Positions 11,111-62,056 of a DNA stretch of 64,000 bases are shown piece after piece (the first letter of the stretch is position 1; every line of letters starts with the position of its first letter). This DNA is from Holophagaceae bacterium (GTDB lineage Bacteria > Acidobacteriota > Holophagae > Holophagales > Holophagaceae): NCBI GenBank assembly GCA_016722505.1, contig JADKJH010000005.1:190872-254871 (forward strand), read 5' to 3'. Both the position numbers and the translations under genes were made by a program. The notes beneath the pieces are model-generated. The model saw only the letters and a program-made list of their open reading frames with translations. It ran no database searches and was not told where the DNA came from.

Positions 11111-11143
11111 TGAGGTACGAGGAGCCTCATTCCTCGTACCTCA
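11111..11143. terminator. Perfect 13-bp-stem hairpin between convergent genes (tgaggtacgagga-gcctcat-tcctcgtacctca)
   Basis: Inverted repeat seen directly; lies between the MshEN gene stop (11105) and the feoB-associated gene stop (11141). Arm motif resembles the IR of the repeat elements at 39.6 and 61.1 kb. Confidence 0.6.
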
Positions 11144-17900: not shown

Positions 17901-20837
17901 TTAAATCACTTCAGCATCTTCGTCAGGTTCTTCCTTCCCGGGCTCGGGCTCTTTGGGCGGATCCACCACCAGCGGCGCTTCGCGCTTCTCAGTGCCCAGG
18001 CTCAAGACTAGCGTGTACTTGCCAGGCAGGATGAAGGGGCGGCGGCCGACGGGCAGGCCCTTGATCGTGCCGGCATCCACCAGCAGATCCCAATCCACGC
18101 GGTTCAGACCGGCGCTGGCATTGATTTTCCAGGTGCGGACGGGTTCCTTCTTTTCACTCAATAATTGCAGTTCGATGGCACCTGGTTTGGCGGCGCTGAA
18201 CCAAAAGGATTGGCCTTTGGTCTCGCCCCGAGGCCACCAGGTGGGGCGGTCGCGCTTCCAGCTTTTCTGAGCCAGGACTTTTTTCGGTTCAAACAAATGA
18301 ATCTTTTCTGCGGCTACTTCCGCCGTGAACTTTTCGAGGGCCTCGATGGGCGCGACCCAGGCGCTGCGGCCATGGGTGCCCACCACGAGGTCGTGGGCCT
18401 TGGCCTGGATGGCGAGATCATGCACCGGGACGTTGGGCATCTCGTGGGCGAGGGCCTGCCAATGGGCGCCAGCATCCATGCTGGTGTACAGGCCGAAGTC
18501 CGAACCCGCGAAGAGCAGATACTTGTTGGCCGGATCCTCGCGGATCACATTCAAGTTTTCTTCGGGCAGGTTGGCTTTGATGTTGGTCCAATTTGCGCCG
18601 AAATCCGCGGATTTGAAAATGTAGGCGGCGCTTTCATCATTGCGCAGGCCGCTGAGGGTCGCGTAGACCGTGCCTTCATCGAAATGGCTGGGCTCCAGGC
18701 GCGTGATCCAGCGGTTCGCGGGCAACCCCTTGGTGATCTCGCTCCAAACGTAACCACCGTCATGGCTCATCCAGGCGCGTCCGTCATCGGTCCCAGCGTA
18801 AAGCAGCCCGAAGCGTATCGGGCTTTCCGAAAGTGAAGTCACCGTGCCGAAGGGCACGTTGCCGACTTTGGGGTTCGTACTGAGATCCCTACTGATCGCC
18901 TTCCATGTGGCACCCTTATCAAGGCTGCGCATCACATGTTGGGTACCGGCATAAAGGATGTCGGAGCTATGGGGGCTCAGCAGCAGCGGCGTCATCCAGT
19001 TGAAGCGGTAGGGCGCATCTTTGAGCTTGTGGCGCGGTTGGATGGACTTGAATTCGCCCGCCTTGGCATTGATGCGGAACATGGAGCCGAACTGGTATTC
19101 GGCATAAGTCGTCGCGTTGTCGCGGGGGTCCACCTGCACGAAGCCACCATCGCCCCCCAGGATGTCGCGCCAGCCGTCGCTCTGCGCACCGGGCCTCAAG
19201 GGTTCCGAAGGTCCCATGCGCACGCTGTTGTCCTGCAGGCCACCGTAGATCCGGTAGGGTTCGGCGTTGTCGGTGGCGATGGTGTAGAACTGGCCGACGG
19301 GCAGGTTCTTGATGCCGCGCCAGCTCCGGCCGCCATTGGTGCTGACATCAAGGCCGCCATCGTGGCCCAGCACCACGCGGTCCGGGTCAGACGGATCCAT
19401 CCACAGGGCGTGGAAATCGGCGTGGGCGGCGTATTCCGGAGTTCCGTTCGCGCCGTGGAAGGTCTGCCCGCCGTCCTTGCTTTCGATCATGGGCATGCCC
19501 AGAAGATAGACATGGCGGTCGTCCTTGGGATCCACGCGCATCTGGCCGAAGTATTAGCCGTAGCTATAGACCACATTATCCAAGCGGCCCGTATGGGTGA
19601 GCTTCCAGGTGGTGCCGCCGTTCTCTGAAACGTAGAGTTCCGGGCCGATGATATGCACGTCGAAGAGGGCCCGCTCCGCATCGGAGACGTAGGCCAGCAG
19701 ATCCTTCACCTCGATCTTGCCGGTTTTGAGATCAGCCTTCACGCTCTCGGCGGTGATGTCCTTATGAAAGCCGTTATCCTTCAAAAACTCTTTGAGTTTC
19801 TTGTCGTCCAGTTTCAGCGCTTCATCCTTGCTCAGTTTCTCCAACTGTTTGAGGGTGAGCTTGTCGGGATCCTCGAAGGGATCCTTCTCAGAGTCTGGCC
19901 GCGCGGTCTGATTATCGACGAAGGCGTAAAGCTTTGAAGAGTTCTGGCGGCTCATGGCCAGGCCGATGCGACCTATTCCATCACCCTTCGGAAAGCCGTC
20001 CGCCATTTGCTTCCAAGTGGCACCACCGTCCCCGCTCTTGTAGATGCCGCTGTTGATGCCGCTTTCCAGGAAATCATTGGGCTTGCGATCCTTCTCCCAG
20101 AGTGCCGCATAGACAACGGCCGGATTGGCTGGATCCACCACGAGATCCACGGCCCCGGATCGGTTGGGCGCAGCCAGCACCTGCTTCCAGCTCTTGCCGC
20201 CATCCTCTGTCTTGAAGACGCCGCGCTCGCCGCCGCTGGTGTAGAGGGGGCCTTGGGCTGCCACATAAACCACTTCAGGATTGCGGGGATCAGGGACAAT
20301 ACGCGCGATGCGATGGCTGTTTTTCAAACCCATATTGACCCACGTCTTGCCGCCATCCGTACTCTTGAAAATTCCCGCGCCCCCATAGGAACTACGGCTG
20401 GCGTTGGCTTCACCGCTCCCCGCCCAGATCGTTTTAGGTTGTCCAGGTTCGCCCCATTGCACGGCGATGGCTCCTAGCGCGAAGGCCCCTTCATGATCGA
20501 ACAGCGAGGTCCAATCGGCGCCTTCGTTCTTCGTGTGCCACAGACCGCCAGTAGCAAAGGCAACAACCCACGCGGAGGGTTTGCGGTCATCGGCCGCAAG
20601 TCCCACTACTCGCCCGCCCTGCCCTAATGGGCCAACGCTGCGAAAAGGGATTGCCTTGAGCGTGCTTTCAGAAAGCAGCTTGTTCCGCTGCGCAAATGCC
20701 TGATCCCGAGCATCAGGCGATGGTGTGGCGGCGACCGGGTGAAACCGCTCGGCCTGTTCCGTCTTCGTCAATGGCTTGTCGCCCGCGGCCAAGGAAAAAG
20801 TCAGCAGGGCCAAACTGGCAAGCGATCCAACGCGCAT
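17901..20837 (-). pseudogene. Sortilin/VPS10-like BNR/Asp-box repeat protein (Ycf48-like beta-propellers) with signal peptide; one ORF of about 985 aa interrupted by an in-frame TAA at 19554..19556
   Basis: ORFs 19554..20837 and 17901..19541 are in the same frame, separated only by ...VVYSYG-TAA-YFGQMRVD.... The TAA sits where the aromatic of a YGYYFG-type repeat is expected. Confidence 0.7.
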
Positions 20838-26060: not shown

Positions 26061-26840
26061 TTGGAGTTGCCCATGGCGATGGTAGTTATACACACATCAG
26101 CTCTTACCAGGGTCCAGAAACAGCGAATCGGAGATCGTGTCATCGAGGCGCTCCATAACGAAGGCCTCCCAGCCAGCACCGTGGTAGTGCTATTTAAGAG
26201 GGAAGATACCGATATCTACCTGGATGGTGGCCTGCTCCACGAGTCCGCTGCACCCCTTTCTACTACCCAACCCACCGCCGTTGCCCCAGGGTTTGTGCCA
26301 GGGCCCCCCTCAAATGGCCAGGATTTCAAAACCAAAGTCCGCCGCTCCCGCCAGGAATTGGATGAGTTGAGATCCAAGCTGGTGGCGCTGCTCCAAGATC
26401 GAGGCGCCCTCTCTAGTTTCGAGGCCCAGGATGGATTGGAACTCGCTGATTGCGATTGGGCTCCCGCCACCCTGCGCCGTTTCTTTGCGGAACTCGAAGC
26501 TGAAGGCGTCATTTTCAAACAGGGGCAAAAGCGGGGCACTCGCTATGTTTGGAAAGGCGTTGCCAACCTCCCCAGGGTTTCCGCACCTGTGAAACTGGTG
26601 AAGAAGGATGACAGTTCCGAGTCTGAGTCGAGAGTCGAGAGCTTTATAGCGATCGCGCCTCTGGCGTCGGCTTTTTTTAGCTCATGGCTCGTACCTACTT
26701 CAGCGCCCGCTCCACATCCTCGGCTTTCCTGGGTAGGTGTGCGCTCAGGTTCTTCGGACCTTCCTGCGTCACCAGGACATCGTCTTCGATGCGTACGCCG
26801 ATGCCCTGCCACTTGGGATCTACGCCTTCGGCACCTTTAG
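26061..26840 (+). CDS. Hypothetical protein: tautomerase-like N-terminal beta-alpha-beta module plus predicted winged-helix domain; C-terminus and stop uncertain
   Basis: MVVIHTSALTRVQKQRIGDRVIEALHNEGLPASTVVVLFKRED resembles a 4-OT fold without Pro1. LRSKLVALLQDRGALSSFEAQ...RRFFAELEAEGVIFKQGQKRGTRYVW is wHTH-like. Follows a low-GC patch next to the IS remnant; the 3' end overlaps pepP convergently by 145 bp. Confidence 0.45.
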   Translation: MELPMAMVVIHTSALTRVQKQRIGDRVIEALHNEGLPASTVVVLFKREDTDIYLDGGLLHESAAPLSTTQPTAVAPGFVPGPPSNGQDFKTKVRRSRQELDELRSKLVALLQDRGALSSFEAQDGLELADCDWAPATLRRFFAELEAEGVIFKQGQKRGTRYVWKGVANLPRVSAPVKLVKKDDSSESESRVESFIAIAPLASAFFSSWLVPTSAPAPHPRLSWVGVRSGSSDLPASPGHRLRCVRRCPATWDLRLRHL

Positions 26841-28110
26841 CGATATAGATGCCGGGCTCGACCGTCAGCACCATGCCAGCCTCCAACAGACGCCGACCCC
26901 CGGCGCGATAGATCGGGTCCTTCGATCCATAGTCGCCTGCATCATGCACATCCAGGCCTAACCAATGGCTTGTGCCGTGGAGAAAGAAACGTTTCCAATC
27001 ACCTCGCTTATAAACCTCGTCCCTATCGCCTTTAATAATTCCAAGATCAACCAAACCATCACTTACCACACGCGAAGTAGCGTAGTGGGTGGCGATGTGG
27101 GGACTGCCCACCACACAAGCCACGATCCCAGCCTCCTGGGCCTTGAATACAAGATCGTAAATCGCACGCTGCTCTGTCGAGAATTTCCCGTTCACGGGCC
27201 ATGTTCGGGTGATGTCGGCGGTGTAATAGCCCACTTCACCGCCCGCATCCATGAGCTGCAGCTCACCGGGATGCAGCGGCGCATCATTAAACGGGTAGTG
27301 CAGGATGCAGCTCTGGTTCCCGGCCCCCGCGATGGTGTCGTAGCCGAGGAAGCGCGCGCCGAGTCCCCGGACCGCGCCCTCGAAGGCCCCGGCCACCTGG
27401 CCTTCGTTGGTAGCTGTTCTAGATGCCTTCATGGCGGCAAGGTGGCCCTCGATGCTCACATCCACGGCCTTTTGGATCATGTCTATTTCGGCTGGTTGTT
27501 TGATGGAACGCATCTCCGCCACCATGTGGCGCCCATCCACAACGGACTTCCGGAACAGGCCATGGTTGTTGTCCGTCCCGAGCGGCAGCACGGCATCGAG
27601 GATTTTTGTCCGGAACTCGCGGTCCAGATTGCAGACGAGCACGATTCGCTGGGCTTTCTTGATAGCCTCGGTCAATACTTCGTCGCCCTTTGGAAAATCG
27701 AAAGCCTGGTCCGCACCCAGTTTCATCGCGCCTTCAATGCCCAGCCGCGGCCCGTTCCACGCCTCCCGTTTGAGATCCCGGGGCCGCACCAACAGGGTGT
27801 AGGGCTTGTCCCCATCGGCCGAAAGCAATGCCACGGCACCCGGTTCCTCCACACCCGTCAGGTAGTAGAAATCAGAATCCTGGCGGAATGCCTGTTCGCC
27901 ATCCCCATTGCGCGGCTGCTCGGGCATGGACTTGATGACTGCCAGCGTACCGGGCCCCAGGGCTCTCAGCTGTTGGACCATCCGTGCGCGATTCCCTGAA
28001 AAAAAGGAAATCGGAAGACGAAGGCCGTGGTAGCCAGTGGATGGAGCCTGGGCCGAAAGGATGGTCGTCACCACGGTGAGACCAAAGAGCATTCCCTTGA
28101 TTCGAAACAT
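26695..28110 (-). CDS. pepP: Xaa-Pro aminopeptidase (M24B, PepP-like) with signal peptide
   Basis: Signal peptide MFRIKGMLFGLTVVTTILSAQA, creatinase_N domain, M24 metal ligands (HGTSHWLGLDVHD, TVEPGIY, IEDDVLVT). Confidence 0.85.
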   Translation of the reverse strand: MFRIKGMLFGLTVVTTILSAQAPSTGYHGLRLPISFFSGNRARMVQQLRALGPGTLAVIKSMPEQPRNGDGEQAFRQDSDFYYLTGVEEPGAVALLSADGDKPYTLLVRPRDLKREAWNGPRLGIEGAMKLGADQAFDFPKGDEVLTEAIKKAQRIVLVCNLDREFRTKILDAVLPLGTDNNHGLFRKSVVDGRHMVAEMRSIKQPAEIDMIQKAVDVSIEGHLAAMKASRTATNEGQVAGAFEGAVRGLGARFLGYDTIAGAGNQSCILHYPFNDAPLHPGELQLMDAGGEVGYYTADITRTWPVNGKFSTEQRAIYDLVFKAQEAGIVACVVGSPHIATHYATSRVVSDGLVDLGIIKGDRDEVYKRGDWKRFFLHGTSHWLGLDVHDAGDYGSKDPIYRAGGRRLLEAGMVLTVEPGIYIAKGAEGVDPKWQGIGVRIEDDVLVTQEGPKNLSAHLPRKAEDVERALK

Positions 28111-28162
28111 CCGGGCCTCCTTACTCCAATCTACACTTTTAGGGGCCGTGCCAAAATAACCG

Positions 28163-28951
28163 GTGCAGTTCGGTTATTTTGCTACGGCCCCTTATGATCG
28201 GAATGACGCAAGCATGGACTGGTTCGCCTACGACTTCGATCACCCAGCATATTTCGATCACTACCGAGATAAAGAGGGCGACGCTTTCTATGAAGGCCCA
28301 GCTCTGGCGTCCCTGCTCGGATTGGAAGGAGGATCGACAGTGCTGGATCTGCCTTGCGGGTGGGGCCGGCTGCGCCCAGCACTGGAAACCCGTGGGTACC
28401 GGGTCGTCGGTGGTGATCTCAGCCCGCTGAACTTGCAACGCCACCGCATCGAATATCCAGGCGCTCTCGTTCGCCTGGATTTCCGGGCCCTGCCCTTCCG
28501 TACAGCCTGCGTGGACGGCGTTTTCTGCGCTTTCACATCCTGGGGCTACTTTGCGACCGAGGAAGAGAACCTCCGCCAGCTCCAGGAATTCGCACGGGTT
28601 CTGAAACCCGGAGGCACCCTGCTGTTGGATCTCTGCGGCCGCGAATCCCTGGAGCGTGGCGTGGCCTCCACCGAAGGGCGATGGATGGAACTGAAAGAAT
28701 TCGGATACCGCGAACGGGTGCGCTGGAGCCCAGACCGGAAACGCATCTGGACCGAAAGAAAGCAGGGCAAATATTCATTCCGCCACGACATCTGGATTCC
28801 CACGGACGGGGAAGTCCGCGAATCCCTGGATATCGCGGGATTCGAATTGGAAGATGCCTTTGGCGGCTTGCATGGAGGGCCATGGGCGAGGGATGCGGAG
28901 CGGTGGATCTACCGCGCGATTAAGGGGCAACCTTCCTCGTCACCAGGATGA
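28163..28951 (+). CDS. Class I SAM-dependent methyltransferase
   Basis: Motif I VLDLPCGWGR, motif post-I VVGGDLS, LKPGGTLLLD; start may be at 28214 (MDWFAY). Confidence 0.7.
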   Translation: MQFGYFATAPYDRNDASMDWFAYDFDHPAYFDHYRDKEGDAFYEGPALASLLGLEGGSTVLDLPCGWGRLRPALETRGYRVVGGDLSPLNLQRHRIEYPGALVRLDFRALPFRTACVDGVFCAFTSWGYFATEEENLRQLQEFARVLKPGGTLLLDLCGRESLERGVASTEGRWMELKEFGYRERVRWSPDRKRIWTERKQGKYSFRHDIWIPTDGEVRESLDIAGFELEDAFGGLHGGPWARDAERWIYRAIKGQPSSSPG

Positions 28952-32908: not shown

Positions 32909-32926
32909 GCAGTGCCGTTGCCAGCA

Positions 32927-32960
32927 AAACGGGGCGGGTTCATCCCGCTCCGTTTTTTTT
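32927..32960. terminator. Bidirectional rho-independent terminator (aaaacggggcggg-ttcat-cccgctccg + T8)
   Basis: GC-rich hairpin followed by 8 T on the plus strand and preceded by A4 (T-run for the minus strand), between the convergent flotillin and TonB-receptor genes. Confidence 0.65.
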
Positions 32961-37870: not shown

Positions 37871-39551
37871 CTATTTCAACCTTGCCAAAACCGTGCTGGG
37901 GCTGCGTCTAAGTTCCTGCCATTCCGACCGTTGGGTTTCGGGCAATCTGCCCCAATCATCCCTGTGGGCCAGCACCATCACCGGCTTCGATGGATCCTCG
38001 GATCTCATCCGCTGGGCGACGGTGCCAAGTTTCAATGGATCCTCCATGAACCAGCGATCCTGCTCAGCCTGGGCCAGCTGCCGTTTGCCGAATCCCAGCT
38101 CGCCGGTGCCGGCCACCACCACACAGCGCTGGCGCGTATGGAATGGAAGGCCCTGGAAATAGACGCCGAAGCTGATCCACTGGGCATTTGAAGGAGCGCG
38201 ATGGATCAGGGGGGCAACATCTTTTCCCGCGCTGGCCACGCGATCCGACACGAACACCAGCGCCAGCATGCAGCCGCCCAGGGAGGCCATCCAGCGAGGC
38301 GCGGTCAGGTGCTTCGGATACAAGGCGAACAGACCGACCAGTCCGAACGCGATGCCCAGTGCAACCACCCAGCCGTTGGCGTGGTTGAGATCCTTGGCGA
38401 AAACGAATCCGCCGATCAGGAAGATGGCGCCGAGCACGAACAACTCAACAGCGATCCGCTTCAAGCTGCGGAATTCTTCACCCTTTTCCTCGAAGGTGCA
38501 CCCCAGGGCCAGCATCGGCACTACGACGGGCAGGATGTAGGGCGCCAGCTTCGAGCCCGACACGCTGAAGAAAAAGAGGGGCCAGGCGAACGCCATCAGC
38601 ATCGTCGCCACGGTCCAACGGTTCAAGGCGGCTTCGAGGCCTTGAGGCCCCGTGGTCCGGCGTACGAAGGCGAGGCCCCGCTTGAGCCCGACAAGGCTAT
38701 GGCTGAGCCATGGGAGCATCCCCACCAGCAGGATTCCCGGGAAGTAGAGCTTGTCCAAGAACGGATTATCCGAACCCTGACGCGCGTGCTCATGCGTGAG
38801 GAACCGCGTGATGTGCTCATGGATGAAAAAGAACTGCGCGTGCCCCGGGTTGGCTTTGTTGACGAAGTAGAACCAGGGTGCCGTCAGCGCGAGGAAGAGC
38901 AGCCAGCCCAAAGGGATTGAACCCCATCGTCAGCACCGCTTTCCGCAGCTTCAGGTCCTTCCACGCGAAGGGCAGCGAAAGCCCCAGGATTCCGACCAGC
39001 AGCACCAGCGCGACAGGTCCCTTGGTCAGCACGGCAGCCGACAACGCGATGTAGGTCAGGAGAGTCCAGCCCATCGAGGCTTCGTTTCGGAATCTTGCTG
39101 CCACCGCTTCTAGCGCCGCTGTGAGTCCCAATACCAGGAATGCGGAAAAGAGCGCATCCAGCGTCAGTAGCTGGCTGCACACAAACGTCAGAAGCACCGT
39201 GGCCGTCATGACCATGGCCCAGATCGGTCCACGGGCGCCCAGGCGCCGCGCCAGCCGCCAGGCGCACCAGAACAGGATCAGCGAAGCCAGCGCCAAGGGG
39301 AGCCGGGCCGCCACCGCATTCAATCCAAAAAGCTTCATGGATGCCGCGGAAATCCAGTACTGCAACGGCGGTTTTTCGAAATACAGTACGCCGTTGAGGG
39401 TTGGCGTGAGCCAATCGCCAGAAGCCAGCATCTCCCGCGGAATTTCCGCGTAGCGGCCTTCGTCAGGTTCCCAAAGCGGCCGCATGAACAGCGGCAGCAG
39501 CCCCAGGATGGCCCAGAGCATCAGGTAGGTGGTGCGATCACGCTTGGTCAT
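37871..39551 (-). pseudogene. ArnT-like undecaprenyl-phosphate-sugar:lipid A / protein glycosyltransferase (GT83), frameshifted near 38880-38910 (gggg run)
   Basis: N fragment has the EPDEGRYAEIPREMLASGDWLTPTLNGVLYFEKPPLQYW ArnT/PMT signature; C fragment continues with APWFYF...HEHITRFL. The two are in different frames and overlap 38817..38911. Confidence 0.75.
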
Positions 39552-39564
39552 GGCTCGGCAGGTG

Positions 39565-39665
39565 GTGAGGTGGAGAGGTATGAGGGGCGAGGTTCAATAA
39601 GGTGGCGGCCAAAGGCCACATCAGCTAGTGCGCTGAAGGCGCACCCCTCATATCTCATACCTCAC
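39565..39665. repeat. Structured intergenic repeat element, copy 1 (about 101 bp, 25-bp imperfect terminal inverted repeats, internal hairpins); overlaps the stop codon of the arnA-like gene
   Basis: Left arm gtgaggtggagaggtatgaggggcg, right arm gcgcacccctcatatctcatacctcac. Core ttcaataaggtggcggccaaaggccacatcagctagtgcgctgaaggcgcac is about 80% identical to 61038..61145. Confidence 0.7.
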
Positions 39666-40732
39666 CCCTCCTCCTCCACCTGCTCCATGGCTTCGTACTC
39701 TTTCAGGAAGAAGTCGAGGCTCTTGGCCAGGGCCTCCTTCATGCTGACTTTGGGATCGAACCCGAAGGCGTCCTGCATCCGCTTGATGCTGGGTGTCCGC
39801 GTCAGCACATCCTGGTAGCCCTTGCCATAGAACGTCCCGCTGCTGGTTTCCACCAGTTCCGATAGCGGAATATTCCGCTTGATGCGCTCCGGGTGGACCC
39901 TCCACAACTCCAGCAGCATCTCCGCCACCTCGCGGACGCTGTGGTCGAGCTTGGGATTGCCGATGTTGAAGATATGGCCATCGGCCTTCCCTCCTTCATT
40001 TTTCAGCACCATCATCAGCCCGTCCATGGCGTCTTCCACGTCAATGAAGCAACGGCGCTGGGCGCCGCCGTCCACTAGCTGCAGCGGTTCGCCCTGGATC
40101 AGGTTCCACACGAATTGGGTCACCAGCCGCGAACTGCCTTCCTTCGCGGTGTTGAGGCTGTCCAGTTTGGGTCCCATCCAATTGAAAGGCCGGATCAGCG
40201 TGAATTTCAAACCATCCCGCTGGCCGTAGCCCCAGATCACGCGGTCCAGCAGCTGCTTGCTGGTGGAATAGATCCAGCGCTGCATGGGGATGGGGCCGGT
40301 CACTAGGGGAGAGGTCTCCTCGTCGAAAGCCGCGTCCGGGCACATGCCATAGACTTCCGAAGTGCTCGGGAACACCACGCGCTTTTTGTACTTCACGCAT
40401 TGGCGCACGATTCGCAGATTCTCTTCGAAATCCAACTCGAAAACCCGCAACGGATCCTGGACATAGATCTTCGGCGTAGCGATGGCGACCAGGGGCAGCA
40501 CCACGTCGCACTTCTTCACGTGGTACTCGATCCATTCTTTGGAGATGGTGATGTCGCCTTCCACGAAATGGAAGCGGTCATGGCCCAAATGTTCCGTGAC
40601 CTTATGGGTGCCGAGATCCATCCCGTACACCTCCCAATTGGTATCGCGCAAGATGCGCCCCACCAGGTGGGAACCGATGAATCCGTTGACGCCGAGGATG
40701 AGGACTTTCACATGTGCTCCAGAACAAACCAT
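39662..40732 (-). CDS. Standalone ArnA C-terminal dehydrogenase domain homolog (UDP-glucuronic acid oxidative decarboxylase, UDP-4-keto-pentose forming)
   Basis: Strong collinear similarity to E. coli ArnA residues about 317-660 (ILGVNGFIG, HFVEGDI, EWIEYHVKKCDVVLPLVAIATP, RVFELDFEENLRI, FPSTSEVYGMC, RWIYSTSKQLLDRVIWGYG, GNP...). Confidence 0.9.
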   Translation of the reverse strand: MVCSGAHVKVLILGVNGFIGSHLVGRILRDTNWEVYGMDLGTHKVTEHLGHDRFHFVEGDITISKEWIEYHVKKCDVVLPLVAIATPKIYVQDPLRVFELDFEENLRIVRQCVKYKKRVVFPSTSEVYGMCPDAAFDEETSPLVTGPIPMQRWIYSTSKQLLDRVIWGYGQRDGLKFTLIRPFNWMGPKLDSLNTAKEGSSRLVTQFVWNLIQGEPLQLVDGGAQRRCFIDVEDAMDGLMMVLKNEGGKADGHIFNIGNPKLDHSVREVAEMLLELWRVHPERIKRNIPLSELVETSSGTFYGKGYQDVLTRTPSIKRMQDAFGFDPKVSMKEALAKSLDFFLKEYEAMEQVEEEG

Positions 40733-40794: not shown

Positions 40795-41490
40795 TCAGAT
40801 CCCCAGCGTCCGCCGCAATTCTTCCATCCGGCGGCGGCTGACGGGGATCCGCCCGCTCGACAGCACCAGATCATCGTCCGCGCTCAGCTCCCGGATGGCC
40901 TGGACCCGGACCAGCGCGTTGCGGTGAACCCGGAAGAAGCCCTGGTCCTTCAAGCGTTCCTCCCAGAAGGCCAGTGTGCCGTCCACCGGTAGGCGGCCCT
41001 CCGCCACCCAGGCCACGCAATCACCCAAATCCGCCACCAGCGCGTCCACCTCTTCGGGCTGCAACAGGCGGGTGCCGGACTTTCGGCGGACGGGGATGCG
41101 CCGCCACTCCCGCTGGAGCGGCTCGTCCTTGGGGCGGATCCTGGAGATGGCCTGCGCCACACCGACCCGCGAAATGGGCTTGAGTAGATAGTGGACCGCG
41201 CCGCCAGCGAAGGCCTCCACAGCGTGCTGCGGATGGGCCGTCACGAAAACCACCGCAGGTTTCGGTTCCGACAGGAGCTGCATCAGTTCCACACCTTTCA
41301 TCCCTGGCATCTCGATGTCGAGGAACGCCGCGTCAGGCTTTAGTCCGGCAATAGCGGCAAGTCCAGCGCGGCCGTTTTCGGCCGTGGCCACCACTTCGAT
41401 TCCCGGAAGCTCCGAGAGCAGGTCCGCCAGATGCTGGCGCGCCAAGGGCTCGTCCTCCACCACGACCACGCGTATCAAGGTTGCCTCCAC
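40795..41490 (-). CDS. LytR/AlgR-family response regulator (CheY receiver + LytTR DNA-binding domain)
   Basis: Receiver with phospho-acceptor D (FLDIEMPGMKG); LytTR domain at the C-terminus. Confidence 0.85.
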   Translation of the reverse strand: MEATLIRVVVVEDEPLARQHLADLLSELPGIEVVATAENGRAGLAAIAGLKPDAAFLDIEMPGMKGVELMQLLSEPKPAVVFVTAHPQHAVEAFAGGAVHYLLKPISRVGVAQAISRIRPKDEPLQREWRRIPVRRKSGTRLLQPEEVDALVADLGDCVAWVAEGRLPVDGTLAFWEERLKDQGFFRVHRNALVRVQAIRELSADDDLVLSSGRIPVSRRRMEELRRTLGI

Positions 41491-42518
41491 CGGAAGCTTG
41501 CCACGGTGCGGGCATCTATTCGTTCCAGGCTCAAATCCTGGGGCTTCGAGAGGCGGCCCCGGAGCGTCGCCAGCGCCGTGCCGGTCCCCCGCTGGAAGCC
41601 GATGCCCGTGCCAGGATCGCTCACCTCCACCACCAGGACTTTCCCCTCCTGCCTCGCCCCGATGCGGATCTCCCCGCCACCCTCCAATGGCGCGATGCCA
41701 TGCTTCACAGCATTCTCCACGAGCACCTGCAGCGAAAGCGGCGGCACCGATGCGGATTCAAGTTCTTCGGGGATGTCCACGCGGACCCTCAGCCTTTCGC
41801 CCAGCCGCGCCTGCTCGATGCCCAGGTAGGCTTCGACGAATCCAAGCTCCTGCTTGAGCGGGATCGCCGCCGAATCCGAAACCTCGATCGCCTGCCGGAA
41901 GAGCTGGGCCAACCGCTCCGTAGTGGCCTGTGCCCCGCGCGGATCCGCTTCGATCTGCGCGTGGAGCGTGTTCAACGTGTTGAAGATGAAATGCGGCGCG
42001 AGCTTCGCGCGGAGCGCCTGCTCCCTGGCCAGCAGTTCCAGGTTTTCCAGCCGGGACTGATGTTCGCGGCCCACGATGCTTCCCAATATCATCACGGGGA
42101 AAAGCACGAGGAACAGCACCGAAACCGGCGCGTGGTGCCCCAGGATTTGGGAACCGGCCGCCAGGGCAACGCCAACAGGGACCGCGATCATCACGCTGCG
42201 GGCTTCCATCCGGGCCCGCCAGGCCTCAAATTCACGGGGCGAGAAGGTAGCCAGTTTGGATCGGCGGATTTCCTTCAATCTGAGCAGGATGATGAAATAG
42301 CAAACAAACCCCGCGCACAGGAGCAATCCAATCATCCAAGGATGAGGCAACCCGCCCCGCGCCTCCATCCAACGGCTATCGAGAAGACCCTGCACAACGG
42401 CATAGGGGAGCACCAGGGTCAAGATCCACCCTAGCCCACCATCAAGAGACCGGGTCATCCCAAGGGGGTGGAAAAGTTGCTGCAGCTTGAACGGGGGACT
42501 TGCGGGGACCTGCGACAT
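41475..42518 (-). CDS. LytS/YehU-type sensor histidine kinase (His_kinase PF06580 + HATPase_c)
   Basis: 4 N-terminal TM helices; HFIFNTLN H-box typical of LytS-type kinases; N/G boxes (LVENAVKHG, DPGTGIG); 16-nt overlap with the response regulator gene. Confidence 0.8.
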   Translation of the reverse strand: MSQVPASPPFKLQQLFHPLGMTRSLDGGLGWILTLVLPYAVVQGLLDSRWMEARGGLPHPWMIGLLLCAGFVCYFIILLRLKEIRRSKLATFSPREFEAWRARMEARSVMIAVPVGVALAAGSQILGHHAPVSVLFLVLFPVMILGSIVGREHQSRLENLELLAREQALRAKLAPHFIFNTLNTLHAQIEADPRGAQATTERLAQLFRQAIEVSDSAAIPLKQELGFVEAYLGIEQARLGERLRVRVDIPEELESASVPPLSLQVLVENAVKHGIAPLEGGGEIRIGARQEGKVLVVEVSDPGTGIGFQRGTGTALATLRGRLSKPQDLSLERIDARTVASFRWRQP

Positions 42519-54971: not shown

Positions 54972-56906
54972 TTGAATTCAGCCGTCAAAAGCATGTTGGT
55001 CTGGGTTGGAATCGTGGTGCTGGTCTACGTGGCCATCATCCAGATTCCCAAAACCAACAATGTGCAGGAAGTGCCCTTCTCCACCTTCATTGCTGAAGGC
55101 GTGGGTGGCAAATACAAGACCGTGACCCTTTCAGGCCAGGATGTGGAAGGCACCTATCGCGCTCCCTTCCGTAACGCCAAGGGCGACCAGATCGAGAAAT
55201 TCAAGACCATCGCCCCGCCCATGCAGGATCTCGGCAAGGTGATTCTCAGCTGGCGCCAGGAAGAGCCCCCCAAGCTCGATGAATTCAAAGCCACCAAGCC
55301 TTCGGACAACCAGTTCATGTACCTCCTGATTTTCTGGGGGCCTCTGCTGGTGTTCGTGGTGCTCTGGTTTGTATTCATGCGCCAGGCCCAGTCTGGTGGC
55401 AACAAGGCGCTTTCTTTCGGAAAAGCCCGCGCGAAGGGGCTTTCCAGCTCCAACAAGCGCATCACCTTCGCGGACGTGGCCGGGTGCGAGGAAGCCAAGG
55501 AGGAGCTCAAGGAAATCGTGGATTTCCTGAAGGATCCAGCCCGTTTCGTGAAACTGGGCGGCAAGATCCCCAAGGGTGTGCTGCTCATGGGCCCTCCCGG
55601 CACCGGCAAGACGCTGCTCGCCAGAGCCATTTCCGGTGAAGCCAAGGTGCAGTTCTTCTCCATCTCCGGCTCGGATTTCGTCGAGATGTTCGTGGGCGTC
55701 GGCGCATCCCGGGTGCGTGACCTCTTCGAGCAAGGGAAGAAGAGCGCGCCCTGCATCATTTTCATTGATGAAATTGACGCCGTGGGACGTCATCGCGGCG
55801 CGGGCATGGGCGGCGGCCACGATGAGCGCGAACAGACTTTGAATCAGCTGCTGGTGGAGATGGATGGCTTCGAGGGTAATGAAGGCGTCATTCTCATCGC
55901 CGCCACCAACCGCCCGGATGTCCTTGATCCAGCCCTGTTGCGCCCCGGCCGCTTCGACCGCCGGGTGGTCGTGGACCGCCCGGATGTGAAGGGGCGATTC
56001 GAAATCCTGAAGGTTCATACCGCCAACAAGATTCCCCTTTCCCCGGATGTGGATCTAGAAGTCATCGCCCGCGGCACGCCAGGGTTCGCGGGTGCCGATC
56101 TCGCCAACCTTTGCAATGAAGCTGCGCTCTATGCCGCCCGCACCAACAAGAAATGGGTGGAGATGTCGGATTTCGAGAATGCCAAGGACAAGGTCTACAT
56201 GGGCTCTGAGCGGCGCTCCATGGTCATGACGGACGAAGACAAAAAGATCACCGCCTACCACGAAGCGGGACACACGGTCCTGGCCGTCACGGTCCAGGGT
56301 GCCGATCCGCTGCACAAAGTCACCATCATCCCCCGGGGCCGCGCCCTGGGCGTCACCTGGCAGTTGCCGGTGGGAGACCGCTACAACACCACCAAGGAGT
56401 TCATGGAAGGCCGTATCGCGATCTCCATGGGCGGCCGCATCGCCGAGGAGATCTTCTTCAACCAGTTCTCCACCGGCGCCAGCAACGACATCCAGCAGGC
56501 CACTAGCATGGCCCGCTCCATGGTCACTGAGTACGGCATGAGCACCAAGCTAGGCCCACTCAATTTCGCTGGCGAACAGCAGGAGATTTTCCTTGGGCGC
56601 GATTACGGGCATCAACGGAATTTCTCCGAGGACACCGCCCGGGTCATTGATTCCGAGGTGCATGACATCGTGATGCGGAACTACGAGCGCGCCAAGCGGA
56701 TCATCCTCGAAAAGCGCGATTCGCTGGTCGCCATCGCTGAAGCGTTGCTGGTCCGTGAAACACTGGACGGAAATGACGTGGAACTGCTCATGAAGGGTGG
56801 CACGCTTCCGCCCCGCCCCGCTTCTGGAACCGGCGGCCCCACCGGCGTCGCAAGCGATGAAAAAAGTCCAGATCCAGGCCTTGATCCGGCTTTGAATCCT
56901 GCATGA
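54972..56906 (+). CDS. ftsH: ATP-dependent zinc metalloprotease FtsH
   Basis: Two N-terminal TM helices, AAA Walker [17 protein letters not shown] zinc motif; 644 aa. Confidence 0.95.
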
Positions 56907-57724
56907 AGCGCTGCTTCTTTTCCGAGGAAGGGCCACTCTCCCCGGGTGGCCCTTTCTTCATTGGAATCCTGAATATCACGCCAGATTCATTCAGCGACGG
57001 GGGACGTTTTTTGGCGCCAGGAATGGCGCTGGCCCAGGCCCTGAAGCTGGTGGCTTCAGGCGCCCGCATGCTCGATATCGGCGCTGAGAGCACCCGCCCA
57101 GGAGCCGCCGTCGTGCCGTGGCTGGAGGAATGGGAACGGCTGGAACCCGTGATCTCAACGCTCCAAGAAAACCTTCCTGGAATCCCGCTTAGCCTTGACA
57201 CCCGCCATGTCCGGGTTGCCGCGAAGGGCCTGGATGCTGGTATCTCCGTACTGAATGACGTGGCCGGATTCTCGGGTCCCGGAATGCTTGAACTGGCGAT
57301 GAGTTCAGATTGCGGGCTCATCGCCATGCGTAGCCGCATGAAAGACGGCTTGCTCTGGATGCCCGAGTACAGCGATTCGGCGCCTCATAGCGTTGACTTG
57401 GCGCTTTCTGAATTGCGGCATGTGCGGGATCGCCTGCTTGGCAGCAACATCGAACCAGAAAGAATCCTTCTGGATCCTGGATTTGGGTTCGGGACGACTT
57501 ATGCCGAGGACTCAGCCCTATGGGGCCTGCTCCCAGAAATTCCAGCGCTGTTGTCCTGGCCCCACGAACGTTTCTGCCTCGGCATCTCCCGAAAACGATT
57601 TCTCGCCTGGCGGAATGGGACACCAGCGCTGCCCCCGATCGACCGGGATGGCCTCACGGACTTGGCTCACCAAGAAGCTGTATCTATGGGCTATCGCATC
57701 TTCAGAACACACGAGCTACCTTAG
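56903..57724 (+). CDS. folP: Dihydropteroate synthase
   Basis: Pterin-binding TIM barrel motifs ([24 protein letters not shown]); ATGA overlap with ftsH. Confidence 0.9.
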
Positions 57725-57727
57725 AGC

Positions 57728-59044
57728 ATGACTTTGAATTATTTCGGCACAGATGGCATACGCGGCCGCGCCTATGAATCCCCTCTCAGCCTTTCCGAAG
57801 TTGCCCGCTGGGGACAGGCCTGGGGCCAGGTGGCGCAATCCAGGGGCATTTCAGGGCTGATCCTTGGATGGGACCCGCGCACTAGCTCCGAACCCATGGC
57901 CCGGGCTCTGCTGCAAGGCCTCGGAGCCTTCCCCACTACCATTCTCGGCATGGTTCCGACACCCGCTGTGGCCCTGCTCACCCAGCAATCTTCCAACGCC
58001 TGGGGCATCATGCTCAGCGCCAGCCACAATCCACCTGAAGACAACGGCATCAAGGGTTTCAATGGACTGGGCGAGAAACTGGAAGCGGAAGAAGAACAGG
58101 CCATCGAATCAGCATTCGGTCTCGCCGCTCTGCAGAATCCGCCAACTCCGCCGCTGCGCCCCGATCAAAGCCTTGCGGAAGGCTATCTCCACCACCTCGG
58201 CGGTGTGGATCTTCCGGACGATTTTTCGATCGTCGTGGACTGCGCCCATGGAGCCACAGCTCCATTCGCCCCGAGAGTGTTGCGGGGAAACATCCATTGG
58301 ATCGGCATCCCAGCAGATGGGGAACGCATCAATGTTGGAGTTGGATCCACTCATCTGGCAGCGCTGCGGGAGGCTGTAATAGCCTCTGGAGCAGAGCTCG
58401 GCATCGCATTCGATGGAGATGGCGACCGTTGTCTGATGGTGGATTCCCAGGGGACCCTAGTGGACGGCGACCAGATGCTCTGGCTGCTGGCCCAGGATCG
58501 CCTGGACGAGGGCGGATCACTTCCCGGCGTTGTGGGCACAGTGATGACCAACGGGGCCCTGGAAGCAGCGCTTGCTACCAGGGGCGTGGGATTTGTGCGG
58601 ACGCCGGTGGGGGACAAATTCCTTTTGCGTGAACTTCAGGCCCGAGGTTGGGATCTGGCCGCGGAAGCCTCCGGGCACGTGATCCAGAAACACGAAGGGC
58701 CTTCGGGAGATGGCTTGGCCACAGCCATCGCCCTGCTCCGGGCCCTCTTGCGCCGTCCTAGATCCGAGCGCTGGTCCTGGCGATTCGATCCCTGGCCCCT
58801 GAAATTGGTGAATCTGAAAGCAAAGAAACGCCGGGCCGTAGAGGAATGCGCGGCTTTGAGCGCCGCCATGAGGGATTTGGAAGCACGCCATGGTGGCACG
58901 GGTGGTTCGTTAAGATTGGTGGTTCGCTGGTCCGGCACAGAACCCAAACTGCGGCTCATGGCCGAAGCCAGGGAACCCGCATTGCTCGACTCCGCCATGG
59001 TTGCCCTTGAGACTGCCGCCCGCGCAGACTTGGGTATGTCATGA
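57728..59044 (+). CDS. glmM: Phosphoglucosamine mutase
   Basis: FGTDGIRG, active-site SASHNP, metal-binding DGDGDR; classic ftsH-folP-glmM order. Confidence 0.95.
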   Translation: MTLNYFGTDGIRGRAYESPLSLSEVARWGQAWGQVAQSRGISGLILGWDPRTSSEPMARALLQGLGAFPTTILGMVPTPAVALLTQQSSNAWGIMLSASHNPPEDNGIKGFNGLGEKLEAEEEQAIESAFGLAALQNPPTPPLRPDQSLAEGYLHHLGGVDLPDDFSIVVDCAHGATAPFAPRVLRGNIHWIGIPADGERINVGVGSTHLAALREAVIASGAELGIAFDGDGDRCLMVDSQGTLVDGDQMLWLLAQDRLDEGGSLPGVVGTVMTNGALEAALATRGVGFVRTPVGDKFLLRELQARGWDLAAEASGHVIQKHEGPSGDGLATAIALLRALLRRPRSERWSWRFDPWPLKLVNLKAKKRRAVEECAALSAAMRDLEARHGGTGGSLRLVVRWSGTEPKLRLMAEAREPALLDSAMVALETAARADLGMS

Positions 59045-59849: not shown

Positions 59850-60211
59850 AGACCGTCCTGGTGGTAGATGACCAGCCGGAGGTCGTGGGCCTCCTTCAGG
59901 ATATTTTGTCTCTTGAAGGCTATCGCGTGCTCACGGCGGACAGCTCGGATCCTGCCCGGAAATGGCTGGCCATTAAAAAGGTGGATTTGGCATTTCTGGA
60001 TGTGGATATGCCAGGCGAGAGCGGCTACGAGCTCTGCGAATTCATCAAAGGCTTTCCAGGGGCGCCAAAAGTCGTGATGCTCACAGGCCTTGAAGATGAA
60101 GCGCACTGGCAAGAAGGGCATCGTGTCGGAGCGGATGTCTATGCGGTGAAGCCCTTCGGACGGGACCGCATTCTTATGATCGTGCAAGAGCTCATCGGAG
60201 AGGCTGACTGA
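59846..60211 (+). CDS. Single-domain response regulator (CheY-like receiver)
   Basis: VLVVDD..., phospho-acceptor FLDVDMPGESG, K in AVKPF; ATGA overlap with pdxJ. Confidence 0.8.
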   Translation: MKTVLVVDDQPEVVGLLQDILSLEGYRVLTADSSDPARKWLAIKKVDLAFLDVDMPGESGYELCEFIKGFPGAPKVVMLTGLEDEAHWQEGHRVGADVYAVKPFGRDRILMIVQELIGEAD

Positions 60212-61032
60212 TGTCGAATCTTCGCGGCAACTTGTCGAGCATTTCCCTCACGGATGTGGCCCAGCTGCTGCATGTGAACAAGAAAACAGGTCTCCTCAAA
60301 GTCACTGCCGGGAAGATCGCCGGAACCCTTTTCGTCGTGAACGGCGAAGTCATCCACGCCGAGACACCCCACAGCAAAGGCGAAATGGCGGCTTTCGAGA
60401 TATTGGAATGGGACAAGGGCGAGTTCGAGTTCATCGCCATGAAGGTGCAGGCCCCCAACAGCATCCGCCGTTCGGTTCCAGACCTGCTCATGGAGTCGGC
60501 CCGCACCTCGGATTCCCGCAAGCGATTGCGCAGCCTGTTTCCGAACCTCAAATCCGTGCCGTGGCCAACCCTTCAGGGCGATGAGTTGCTTCAGGGCATC
60601 AAGATCTACACAGAGGATCGGAAAATCATTCCTTATTTCGACGGGTTCCGGGACTTCATGGATGTCATGGCCACCACCGAACTAAACGAAGTCGCGGTGC
60701 TCCAGGCCGCGAGCATTCTTTATGATGCGGGACGCCTTAAATTATTCGAACCCGAGGTGCAGGTGAATGTCGGGATCATGAAAACAGGATTCTTCAAGAA
60801 GGGTGATCACTTGGAAGCGCCCAAGTCCCTCGAGGCCCAATGGCGTCAGCTGGAGCCCTACAGCAGCGCGCCCATCACCAACGTGCGCGTCATGTGGGCC
60901 AACGGTCCCGCCGTAGACCCCATCCAATTCGTCACCGGAATGAATGATTTCACCCTCGCGATCTCGAAGGACCTCTTGGGTGCATGGGGCCTGAATGAAG
61001 GTGACGTCGTGCAGGTTCGGCCAGCGCCCTGA
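60211..61032 (+). CDS. DUF4388 domain-containing protein
   Basis: GNLSSISLTDVAQLLHVNKKTGLLKV...GTLFVVNGEVIHA...GEMAAFEILEWDKGEFEF matches the DUF4388 pattern; 1-nt overlap with the receiver gene. Confidence 0.7.
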   Translation: MSNLRGNLSSISLTDVAQLLHVNKKTGLLKVTAGKIAGTLFVVNGEVIHAETPHSKGEMAAFEILEWDKGEFEFIAMKVQAPNSIRRSVPDLLMESARTSDSRKRLRSLFPNLKSVPWPTLQGDELLQGIKIYTEDRKIIPYFDGFRDFMDVMATTELNEVAVLQAASILYDAGRLKLFEPEVQVNVGIMKTGFFKKGDHLEAPKSLEAQWRQLEPYSSAPITNVRVMWANGPAVDPIQFVTGMNDFTLAISKDLLGAWGLNEGDVVQVRPAP

Positions 61033-61037
61033 CGAGG

Positions 61038-61145
61038 GTTGAGGTACAAGAGACGAGGGGCGAAGTTCAATAAGGCAGCGGCCGAGGGCCGCATCACCTA
61101 GTGCGCCGGAGGCGCCCCCCTCATACCTCGCACCTCATACCTCAC
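61038..61145. repeat. Structured intergenic repeat element, copy 2 (about 108 bp); overlaps the stop codon of the recombinase gene
   Basis: Left arm gttgaggtacaagagacgaggggcg, right arm gcgcccccctcatacctcgcacctcatacctcac. Core ttcaataaggcagcggccgagggccgcatcacctagtgcgccggaggcgcc about 80% identical to copy 1. Confidence 0.7.
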
Positions 61146-62056
61146 GACTTCTTCGCCCTGGGGTGCGCGGAGTTATAGGTCTTCGAGAGCTGTTCCAGGT
61201 CCAGGTGGGTGTAACGCTGGGTCGTGCTGAGGCTGGCGTGGCCCAGGAGTTCCTGGATGGCCCGAAGGTCCATGCCATGGGCAAGCAGGTGGGATGCAAA
61301 GCTGTGGCGCAGGGCATGTGGACTGATGCGTGCCCTGAGCGCCGCCCCTTCCACGGCCTTCTGAAGCAGATTGCGGATGCTGGTGGTGGTCAGGCGTCCT
61401 CCGCGCAGGTTTAAAAAAATCGCAGCGGTGGGTGGCAGGGATTTCAATGCCAGATGATCGCTTCTGAAACCCAGATAGCGTTCTAAGGCCTCGGCGGCTC
61501 CGGGATGAAAAGGCACCAACCGTTCTTTGCTGCCCTTTCCGACTACCCGCAGTGTCCTCTGTTCAAAAAACACATCTTGAAGATCCAGCCCCACCAACTC
61601 GGAAACGCGCAATCCAGAGGCGTAGAGCAATTCCAGGAGGCAGCGCAGCCGCGCGGATGGAAAATCAACAGCCGCTGGAAGATCCAGCAAGGAAGCGCTT
61701 TCACCTTCCGTTAAAAAGGCCGGGAGCTTGATGGCTTGCTTGGGGTTTCTGAGACCTGAAGCAGGATTCGCCGGTATGCGGCCCGTATCCCAAAGCCAAC
61801 GGAAGAATCCCCGGGCCGTGGATAAGATCCGGGCCTGGCTCGCAGGGTCCAGTCCACGCGTGCCCAGTTCCAAAGCGAATCGCCGCAAGGTGCGTGGAGT
61901 CACATCCCACCCCGCCCATGATTCTTGAAGCGCATGGGCAACGAGTTTTTCCAGGTCGCCTTTTTGTGCCATGACAGTGTGCGGCGAGACCCCTCTGGCG
62001 CGTTGTTCCAGATGGAAGGCTTGGACCGATTCAGTCAGCGGAGAAGAGGCATTCAT
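61142..62056 (-). CDS. Tyrosine recombinase XerC/XerD family
   Basis: Phage-integrase N-terminal SAM-like domain, catalytic R...HxxR...Y (ALRHSFASHLL...TQRYTHL); 304 aa. Confidence 0.85.
   Translation of the reverse strand: MNASSPLTESVQAFHLEQRARGVSPHTVMAQKGDLEKLVAHALQESWAGWDVTPRTLRRFALELGTRGLDPASQARILSTARGFFRWLWDTGRIPANPASGLRNPKQAIKLPAFLTEGESASLLDLPAAVDFPSARLRCLLELLYASGLRVSELVGLDLQDVFFEQRTLRVVGKGSKERLVPFHPGAAEALERYLGFRSDHLALKSLPPTAAIFLNLRGGRLTTTSIRNLLQKAVEGAALRARISPHALRHSFASHLLAHGMDLRAIQELLGHASLSTTQRYTHLDLEQLSKTYNSAHPRAKKS

Follow-up and report, generated by a model that had tools for sequence, protein, structure and literature searches.

A structured intergenic palindrome with inverted heptamer arms and a conserved core in Holophagaceae

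Two copies of the element and their anatomy

In this study, we analyzed a 64,000-nt stretch of DNA from a Holophagaceae bacterium (GenBank assembly GCA_016722505.1, contig JADKJH010000005.1; hereafter the window), which carries two copies, ~21 kb apart, of an intergenic element with a length of ~113 nt. Copy 1 (39561-39673) occupies site A, between the stop codon of an arnA-like gene (UDP-4-keto-pentose/UDP-xylose synthase, 39662..40732) and the start codon of an ArnT-like glycosyltransferase gene (37871..39551), both on the minus strand with the arnA-like gene upstream. Copy 2 (61034-61146) occupies site B, between a DUF4388/PatA_N gene (60211..61032, plus strand; stop codon at 61030-61032) and the convergent xerC gene (61142..62056, minus strand). 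A first-pass annotation made from the sequence alone had described two segments of about 80% identity here, and this was borne out: the ungapped match between 39582-39670 and 61055-61143 showed 83% identity over 89 nt, a wider MAFFT alignment of the two copies gave 81%, and a covariance model built from five copies (R1) scored copy 1 at 118.9 bits (E ~1e-25) and copy 2 at 107.4 bits (E ~5e-23). Over the 64-kb window, R1 found no match above 33 bits beyond these two copies. The arm motif GAGGTATGAGG, with one mismatch allowed, occurred 8 times against 0.62 expected, and all occurrences were confined to loci at 11.1, 39.6 and 61.1 kb.

The element consists of two imperfectly complementary arms of ~25-30 nt, which are inverted arrays of tandem GAGGNNN heptamers with variable copy number, and the resulting stem of ~25-35 bp encloses a 61-nt core. 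On the plus strand, the degenerate GAGGNNN heptamers of the left arm are followed by a 4-bp closing stem (GAGG/CCTC), an unpaired TTCAATAAGG box, hairpin 1 (GCGGCC-n3-GGCCGC), a linker of 5-8 nt, CTA, hairpin 2 (GTGCGCC-n3-GGCGCAC) and the NNNCCTC right arm. The ends of the element read GAGG.../...CCTC, and its copies have a G+C content of 55-64%. In copy 1, whose plus-strand reading we call the forward-core orientation, the left arm (39561..39588; degenerate GAGGNNN array ggtggtGAGGtggaGAGGtatGAGGggc, period 7-8) pairs with the right arm (39650..39673, a CCTCNNN array), and the core (39589..39649) contains the closing stem, the box (39593-39602), hairpin 1 (39605-39619, GCGGCC-AAA-GGCCAC) and hairpin 2 (39628-39644, GTGCGCT-GAA-GGCGCAC). 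The corresponding parts of copy 2 on the plus strand are the arms at 61034-61061 and 61118-61146, the box at 61066-61075, hairpin 1 at 61078-61092 (GCGGCC-GAG-GGCCGC) and hairpin 2 at 61101-61117 (GTGCGCC-GGA-GGCGCCC). The terminal inverted repeats and two internal hairpins of the earlier description are therefore present in both copies, and so is the minus-strand TGA that it placed in the right arm (TCA on the plus strand at 39662-39664, the arnA-like stop, and at 61142-61144, the xerC stop).

Both copies were predicted to fold very stably. The folding energy of copy 1 was -59.8 kcal/mol on the plus strand and -56.1 kcal/mol on the minus strand (z -6.4 and -5.2 against shuffles), and that of copy 2 was -50.6 and -63.2 kcal/mol, with z-scores from -3.7 to -6.4 over both copies and strands. 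In the consensus structure of eight copies, 92.6% of cells were paired. Owing to the palindromic nature of the arms and of both hairpin stems, the two strands share one general fold and differ only in hairpin order and in what the unpaired box reads.

The third locus with the arm motif (11111..11143, site D) is a core-less relative. It has the same heptamer and matched R1 with its arms only (25.7 bits); the first-pass annotation was right about the related arms, whereas the perfect stem (TGAGGTACGAGG-AGCCTCATT-CCTCGTACCTCA) is 12 bp rather than 13 bp. This hairpin adjoins a convergent MshEN-domain gene (stop codon at 11103-11105) and a small open reading frame (ORF) upstream of feoB, whose stop codon is the last triplet of the hairpin, TCA.

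Distribution, site states and constraint

A scan of 185,579 species genomes with the pattern TTCAATAAGG-N22-CTAGTGCGC revealed three true copies, one each in the Holophagaceae metagenome-assembled genomes (MAGs) L004, L005 and L009, as well as six further matches due to chance. The same pattern gave no true copy in metagenome contigs (chance matches only) or viral contigs. Being too strict, this exact pattern did not capture all copies: one in L029, with the variants TTCAATAATG and TCAGTGCGC, escaped it, so that the counts from these scans are lower bounds. No match was obtained by blastn against plasmid and phage collections; Rfam gave 0 hits over the whole window at gathering thresholds, and a permissive scan gave only generic miRNA-hairpin models (at most 24 bits against thresholds of 55-168). 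Literature searches on Holophagaceae repeats and on the core sequence yielded no description of the element, and R1 found no further full copy in ~200 kb of related DNA. Full copies were thus found solely in Holophagaceae assemblies, at three sites (arnA-like|ArnT, xerC|DUF4388 and SCP2|ECF-sigma) and at ~2-3 copies per genome, with a total of eight distinct full copies available for comparison. Hairpins 1 and 2 did not occur as free-standing palindromes outside copies of the element, except for one relative with hairpin 2 only (L027, 5510-5580); a look-alike at 32872-32886 of the window lies inside a coding region and was rejected as coincidental. Orthologues of three window genes were overwhelmingly from Holophagaceae, Geothrix or Holophaga, and the MshEN-domain protein of the window gave 100%-identical matches in a Holophagaceae MAG.

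The recurrence of the element in independent assemblies shows that it is neither a chance feature nor an assembly artefact. The proposal of a genuine structured intergenic repeat family, unmatched in Rfam, plasmids, phages and our literature searches, stands. The element is not a high-copy family of the REP type, with only ~2-3 full copies per genome found at three sites.

Syntenic loci were obtained via orthologues of the flanking genes (L026 is the same contig as L005), and different states were observed at each site. At site A, where both genes are co-directional, the full element was found in the window, L019, L025/L026 and L004, a core-less heptamer hairpin in L020 and L027, and an empty site, with a spacer of only 12-15 nt that is typical of coupled genes, in L021 and L022-L024. 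Filling of this site swaps the last arnA-like codons from ADEA*/ADEG* to EEEG*/EEES*. At site B, full copies in the same orientation were present in the window and in L029; the latter belongs to the same MAG as L005, which thus carries at least two copies. L032-L034 have a decayed copy with an inverted core at this site, and L030/L031 have a different 92-nt palindrome, in which heptamer arms of the GGCTGTA type enclose a GGTTCAAT box and a single hairpin; with TTCAAT and a hairpin of another kind, the one in L030 counts as a modular relative. The contig of L028 breaks 6 nt past the xerC stop codon. Site C, known from L009, lies between an SCP2 gene and an ECF-sigma/ChrR operon, and the orientation of the core relative to transcription is opposite to that at site A. 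At site D, the core-less hairpin of the window is replaced by a 3-nt spacer in L035 (empty) and by an 87-nt palindrome in L036, which has GGGCTNT arms, a T-run and a centre resembling hairpin 1 (GGCAGCGGCC-TAC-GGCC). Across relatives, the three core modules (the TTCAATAAGG box, hairpin 1 and hairpin 2) were found together or singly. These site states indicate a modular, low-copy family that has been gained, lost, decayed and inverted over evolutionary time. The element occupies a small number of gene 3' ends, where its inheritance is mostly vertical.

The core was much more conserved than its surroundings. Its identity was 89-92% among site-A orthologues (copy 1 versus L004, L005 and L019) and 79-87% between paralogous sites, whereas four-fold degenerate sites of the arnA-like gene showed 48-68% identity between different genomes, and those in the 450 nt flanking the element 37-65%. 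Binomial probabilities for so few core differences at the gene-wide four-fold rate ranged from 1.5e-7 to 4e-5. Core identity so far above that of adjacent four-fold sites implies constraint at the nucleotide level, and judged by these rates the core is held by purifying selection acting on nucleotides. The linker and both 3-nt loops accounted for most of the variation; the stems were nearly invariant, as was the box, which was identical in six of the seven well-preserved copies and had one substitution in L029. In addition, copies clustered by site and not by genome (copy 1 and L019, 0.92; copies 1 and 2, 0.84; L005 and L029, 0.79), so that concerted evolution does not explain the conservation. 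The first-pass annotation had held that just two copies and no structural covariation would speak against a family. The copy scan and covariation test came close to that outcome, with few copies and no significant covariation, whereas conservation of the core across genomes exceeds that of a chance duplicate.

The arms were 46-88% identical, retained the GAGG phase and their complementarity, and showed a few compensatory changes, such as TAT:ATA to TAC:GTA. Taken together, these data establish nucleotide-level constraint and maintained long-range complementarity; they do not identify the strand or the molecule of action. In the arnA-like protein tree, full elements occurred in both major clades, and L020 and L022 lacked them; the 5' region of the window ArnT gene was closer to L025/L027 (80-91%) than to the tree neighbours L020/L022 (74-82%). 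These patchy states of site A and the mosaic similarity of its flank are consistent with homologous recombination spreading the filled allele.

The heptamer also affects reading frames. Because TGAGGNN shifts the frame by one per repeat, the 5' arm contains stop codons in two to three frames, and often ATG as well. On either strand, stops in two to three frames were present in 13 of the 14 readings of a 5' arm, and the 3' arm was almost stop-free. Upstream genes therefore end inside the arm; for example, the last four codons of the arnA-like gene (EEEG*) lie within the heptamer array. A putative 36-codon relay ORF (39548..39658, minus strand; MRYEGCAFSALADVAFGRHLIEPRPSYLSTSPPAEP*) begins with an ATG in the 5' arm, 3 nt past the arnA-like stop codon, and its TGA overlaps the ArnT start codon (ATGA). 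In all six filled variants of site A (window, L019, L025, L004, L020 and L027), such an ORF crosses the element and ends at most 5 nt from the ArnT ATG, with the ATGA overlap in four of them. The relay ORF may thus preserve translational coupling of the arnA-like and ArnT genes, a suggestion that these variants favor only weakly because they share ancestry.

ArnT is intact in relatives carrying the element. It is a single ORF of 559-562 aa in relatives, and in the window it is split into two overlapping ORFs near 38907-38923 by one extra base in CCCTTTGGG, where L019 has CCCCTTGG; the frameshift is either genuine or due to a homopolymer error in the assembly. A Sortilin/BNR-repeat gene is also split in the window (17901..19541 and 19554..20837, minus strand; one gene of 920-978 aa in L035 and L036), and an NMO gene (2488..3294) covers only the C-terminal part of the Pfam profile (the L036 protein has 573 aa). 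Both are candidate assembly indels or pseudogenes. With several window genes split (ArnT, Sortilin/BNR and possibly NMO), indel errors of the assembly are possible; the element itself is corroborated by independent assemblies. Directly upstream of the arnA-like and ArnT genes lies a pair encoding a LytTR response regulator and a LytS-like His_kinase (40795..42518, minus strand). This arrangement is kept in L025 and L026 and absent in L020, L021 and L027, and the pair is a possible regulator of Ara4N-type lipid modification genes.

The neighbor of copy 2, previously called a recombinase gene, does encode a tyrosine recombinase; it is the housekeeping XerC rather than a mobile-element integrase, with 73-77% identity to Holophaga foetida, Geothrix rubra and many Holophagaceae MAGs and with conserved synteny. 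At the other two full-element sites, no recombinase is nearby. Genes for a transposase, RAYT, reverse transcriptase or integrase were absent from the annotated parts of the window and from syntenic loci, a context of ~400 kb made up of the window and the surroundings, up to 20 kb, of selected genes. Several other candidates were rejected. A dif or integrase att site would have two 11-bp arms around a 6-8-bp spacer, whereas on inspection both palindromes have 3-nt spacers, and XerC is chromosomal. A replication origin or terminus was dismissed since the window had no GC-skew switch and its annotated genes included no dnaA or parAB. A tRNA-like T-arm, an IHF site, an integron attC site (R''/R' boxes) and a retron msr/msd were dropped by eye, their defining motifs or partner genes being absent.

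Other repeats were noticed in these genomes. Intergenic palindromes with tandem-repeat arms of other types (GAGTCGA, GGGCTGT and an ATCCGTGnnn decamer) were observed in the window (26610-26700), L032 (3448-3615), L035 (16228-16304), L036 (10940-11026 and 15585-15712) and L025 (1456-1546). The arm type seems genome-specific, and foldback-like palindromes appear to be general in these Holophagaceae. Non-palindromic intergenic arrays of tandem heptamers (GATTTTC/CGAAAAT), reminiscent of cyanobacterial STRR repeats, were present in L020 (5255-5284 and 6153-6179), L025 (3266-3288) and L029 (14396-14428). Furthermore, the window contains a 72-nt unit twice in tandem (9812-9883 and 9884-9955, 92% identical) within 9746-10000, with one copy of a 43-nt direct repeat on each side (9746-9788 and 9958-10000); this direct repeat duplicates the 5' end of a MiaB-like radical-SAM gene (MKFHIQTWGCQ; 8475..9779, minus strand). 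The arrangement is kept in L035 (9615-10000, two units) and L036 (9647-10000, one diverged unit), and the recurrence of the hairpin of the unit, GCACGGTCCACTGGACCGTGC, elsewhere in L035 (~1758) points to a structured leader or to another dispersed repeat family. Rfam gave no hit here. In L029, a GC-rich insert of ~300 nt (14440-14735) with a 19-nt inverted repeat (GAGCTTGTCCGTAAATTAG ... CTAATTTACGGACAAGCTC) separates PGM_PMM from Pterin_bind, whose window orthologues (56903..57724 and 57728..59044) abut at a distance of 3 nt; possible identities of this insert are a structured RNA and a mobile sequence. Finally, a 22-nt inverted repeat in the window (28141-28192; AGGGGCCGTGCCAAAATAACCG / CGGTTATTTTGCTACGGCCCCT, 91% complementary, 8-nt loop) lies between the divergent genes for aminopeptidase P (26695..28110, minus strand) and a methyltransferase ORF (28163..28951, plus strand), overlaps the first bases of the latter, and could be an operator or leader hairpin.

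Possible roles and competing explanations

Our preferred reading, which we hold tentatively and rate at nearly an even chance, is that the element is an ERIC/BIME-like mosaic palindrome of a Holophagaceae sub-clade, low in copy number and co-transcribed, which ends the upstream ORF and whose core is read by a host factor. The element would be transcribed together with its neighbors in whichever orientation it lies. In RNA from either strand, (GAGGNNN)n would form the 5' arm and (NNNCCTC)n the 3' arm, with a three-way junction between them and a predicted energy of -50 to -80 kcal/mol, and the upstream ORF would be ended within the first heptamers. In the arnA-like-ArnT operon, the relay ORF would be translated across the element and stop on the ArnT start codon, preserving coupling; between convergent genes, the element would act as a barrier or insulator hairpin at the 3' end. 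The invariant core, with its conserved stems and free 3-nt loops, would most simply be the recognition site of a trans-acting host factor, either as DNA or as RNA.

Several observations weigh against this reading. Pairs with changes on both sides numbered 4, compared with 2.2 ± 1.0 in shuffles (42 of the 500 shuffles were as high), in a set of eight similar sequences, and the covariation term of RNAalifold was unfavorable. Neither strand was consistently more stable in folding energy. A terminator scan around both window copies gave 0 sites and no T-run. The frameshift of ArnT in the window, unless an indel error of the assembly, may mean that coupling is irrelevant in this genome, and the relay ORF could simply be inherited, given shared ancestry and a 3' arm unable to hold stop codons. 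The estimate of copy number is based on ~330 kb of related DNA and on exact-pattern scans that missed L029; a set of 2-3 copies in each genome is only weakly described by the term 'repeat family', and 'duplicated functional site' might suit it better. Finally, we infer the co-transcription, the folding of the RNA in vivo and the effect on mRNA or translation.

The suggestion that the element doubles as a terminator was not supported. The sequence past the 3' arm is C-rich in both copies, and without a T-run after the element classical termination is not expected; moreover, at one site the element is located within an operon, and relatives retain an intact gene downstream of it. Canonical T-run terminators are present elsewhere in the window (32925-32960 and 26650-26680).

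An unlikely alternative is a protein-binding site in double-stranded DNA. The core would then be a nucleoprotein assembly site independent of transcription, with two operator-like palindromes (half-site centres 9-10 bp apart) and an AT-rich box, and the heptamer arrays would be symmetric accessory sites or aids to cruciform extrusion, an arrangement similar to operators, centromere-like sites or the sites of nucleoid proteins. In both palindromes the half-sites are invariant and the 3-nt spacers vary freely, and the rare stem changes in the almost invariant inner hairpins (GGCCAC in copy 1 and GACCGC in L005) are uncompensated. Such a site would also agree with the constancy of the unpaired TTCAATAAGG box in six of seven well-preserved copies, with the occurrence of the element in both orientations and between convergent genes, with the absence of strand asymmetry (G-U versus A-C asymmetry relative to mRNA sense showed no consistent bias) and with a distance of only 21 kb between the window copies. 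However, none of the three contexts of the element includes a linked candidate for a binding protein, no origin or partition genes are nearby, and close relatives can dispense with the site, which in them is empty or core-less. The constant abutment of the element on a stop codon and the upkeep of long complementary arms (TAT:ATA to TAC:GTA) would also be left unexplained.

A bolder proposal, in which we place little confidence, is that the 61-nt core represents a new kind of cis element, an AT-rich box plus two palindromes with 3-nt spacing, that is constrained at the nucleotide level, read by a Holophagaceae factor on DNA or RNA and carried to gene 3' ends in foldback palindromes with heptamer arms. 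A clade-wide process would build palindromes with tandem-repeat arms from interchangeable arms (GAGGTAT, GGGCTGT, GAGTCGA and the decamer) and core modules, and these would contain stop and start codons in most frames and hence could be inserted into operons without breaking coupling.

That the element is a selfish, non-autonomous MITE (miniature inverted-repeat transposable element) or foldback-like element without host function, its core conserved through recent spread from a master copy or a transposase encoded elsewhere, appears rather improbable. The terminal inverted repeats, the filled and empty sites in close relatives, the different heptamer-armed palindromes at the same intergenic sites (sites B and D in Ga0485187), the patchy distribution on the arnA-like tree and the break of the L028 contig right at the element would all fit this explanation. 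On the other hand, junctions of filled (window, L019 and L025) and empty (L021 and L022) site A, and of site D in the window and L035, had no direct repeat, so that the check for target-site duplications proposed earlier was negative, and the MITE reading is further contradicted by the lack of TA termini, the GC-richness of the element and the absence of a transposase from its ~400-kb context. Copies cluster by site with no homogenization within a genome, only 2-3 copies per genome were found, and the junctions are common to orthologous copies in both major arnA-like clades, which favors descent over re-insertion.

An independently transcribed small-RNA gene family, with a three-way junction and a single-stranded UUCAAUAAGG or its complement serving as a seed or protein-binding loop, has a slim prospect of being correct. 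Such genes could explain the very stable folds predicted for both strands, the conserved unpaired box between hairpins, the conservation of the core well beyond neutral expectation and the intergenic position. Nevertheless, neither a sigma-70-like promoter nor a terminator T-run was found within or beside either copy in the window, such a gene would be bordered directly by variable heptamer arrays that extend into coding sequence, and orientation relative to neighbors flips even at one site. With no significant covariation, no strand bias, no Rfam match and both orientations relative to transcription, the small-RNA reading of the first-pass annotation finds little in its favor. A functional small protein from the 36-codon ORF across copy 1 is very improbable and in effect rejected: each of the four full copies at site A can be read through the core in one common frame, but the ORF is missing from the copies at sites B and C, and all core substitutions are non-synonymous (F/L, S/G, A/D/V, V/A, F/L and R/H) with no synonymous change in the codons GGC CGC CAC CTT ATT GAA CCT, at a time when neighboring genes differ at 35-63% of four-fold sites, so that the constraint is on nucleotides and the product is probably not a functional peptide.

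Significance and comparison with known repeats

Work on REP, ERIC, BOX and Correia repeats has hardly reached beyond Proteobacteria and Firmicutes, and for several of these repeats, most of all ERIC, the function has yet to be settled. As far as our searches show, this is the first such element described for Holophagaceae (Acidobacteriota). With few copies at defined orthologous sites, natural full, core-less, inverted and empty alleles and a selected core, it offers a tractable case for host function, for which an RNA barrier, preserved translational coupling or a protein-binding site are possible roles. Annotation of these bacteria, which are common in fresh water and wastewater, stands to benefit as well, since the element provides stop codons, changes C-termini and can interrupt assemblies.

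The arms resemble cyanobacterial STRR repeats, which are tandem heptanucleotide arrays in intergenic regions; to our knowledge, STRR arrays have not been described as flanking a conserved core. Foldback elements also have long inverted arms of short tandem repeats; they are eukaryotic and kilobase-sized, and no homology to the element is implied. BIMEs are mosaic and modular, combining palindromic units with conserved linker motifs, as does the element. REPs are 20-40 nt long, occur in tens to hundreds of copies, often as inverted doublets, and are usually accompanied by RAYT, whereas the element is ~113 nt long with 2-3 copies, and RAYT is absent from ~400 kb of its context. Like intrinsic terminators, the element is a GC-rich hairpin found right after stop codons and between convergent genes; unlike them, it has no T-run, is far larger and is conserved in sequence.

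REP/BIME repeats and REPINs share with the element their nature as GC-rich extragenic palindromes at gene 3' ends, with stems that are conserved rather than covarying (PMC3116915). Bacterial MITEs are typically A+T-rich, with TA ends, target-site duplications and ~100 or more copies (PMC2229807). The element resembles Correia/NEMIS, RUP and other MITEs in its size below 200 bp, terminal inverted repeats and predicted stem-loop transcripts, and the 155-bp Correia element and RUP likewise carry stop codons in many frames (PMC2229807). Set against the features by which MITEs are recognized, it is shorter than 200 bp and has terminal inverted repeats, but it has no target-site duplication, TA termini or A+T richness, its full copies were found at three sites only (2 in the 64-kb window and no further one in ~330 kb of related DNA), and no transposase is found in its context. 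YPAL/RU-2 of Yersinia is similar in being not A+T-rich, in lacking TA termini and in showing filled and empty sites between close relatives, and it inserts at or beside regions of dyad symmetry (PMC2229807). In contrast to the element, YPAL has variable target-site duplications and internal inverted repeats, is abundant and has no heptamer arrays.

ERIC/IRU (127 bp) shows a similar architecture, being, like the element, an imperfect palindrome of ~110-127 bp with a conserved centre, located in either orientation in transcribed intergenic regions or 3' ends, present or absent at orthologous sites, low in copy number in some genomes and without a known mobilizing enzyme (PMC2229807). Its transcripts form long stem-loops that alter the stability of neighboring mRNA, and it can carry ORFs (PMC2229807). 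The likeness drawn here is one of architecture. Unlike ERIC, the element is GC-rich, lacks TA termini and target-site duplications, and has variable heptamer arms, with 2-3 copies found in a narrow Holophagaceae clade. We therefore class the element as a new form of small intergenic palindromic repeat outside the named families, and as probably neither autonomous nor a classical transposon-derived MITE.

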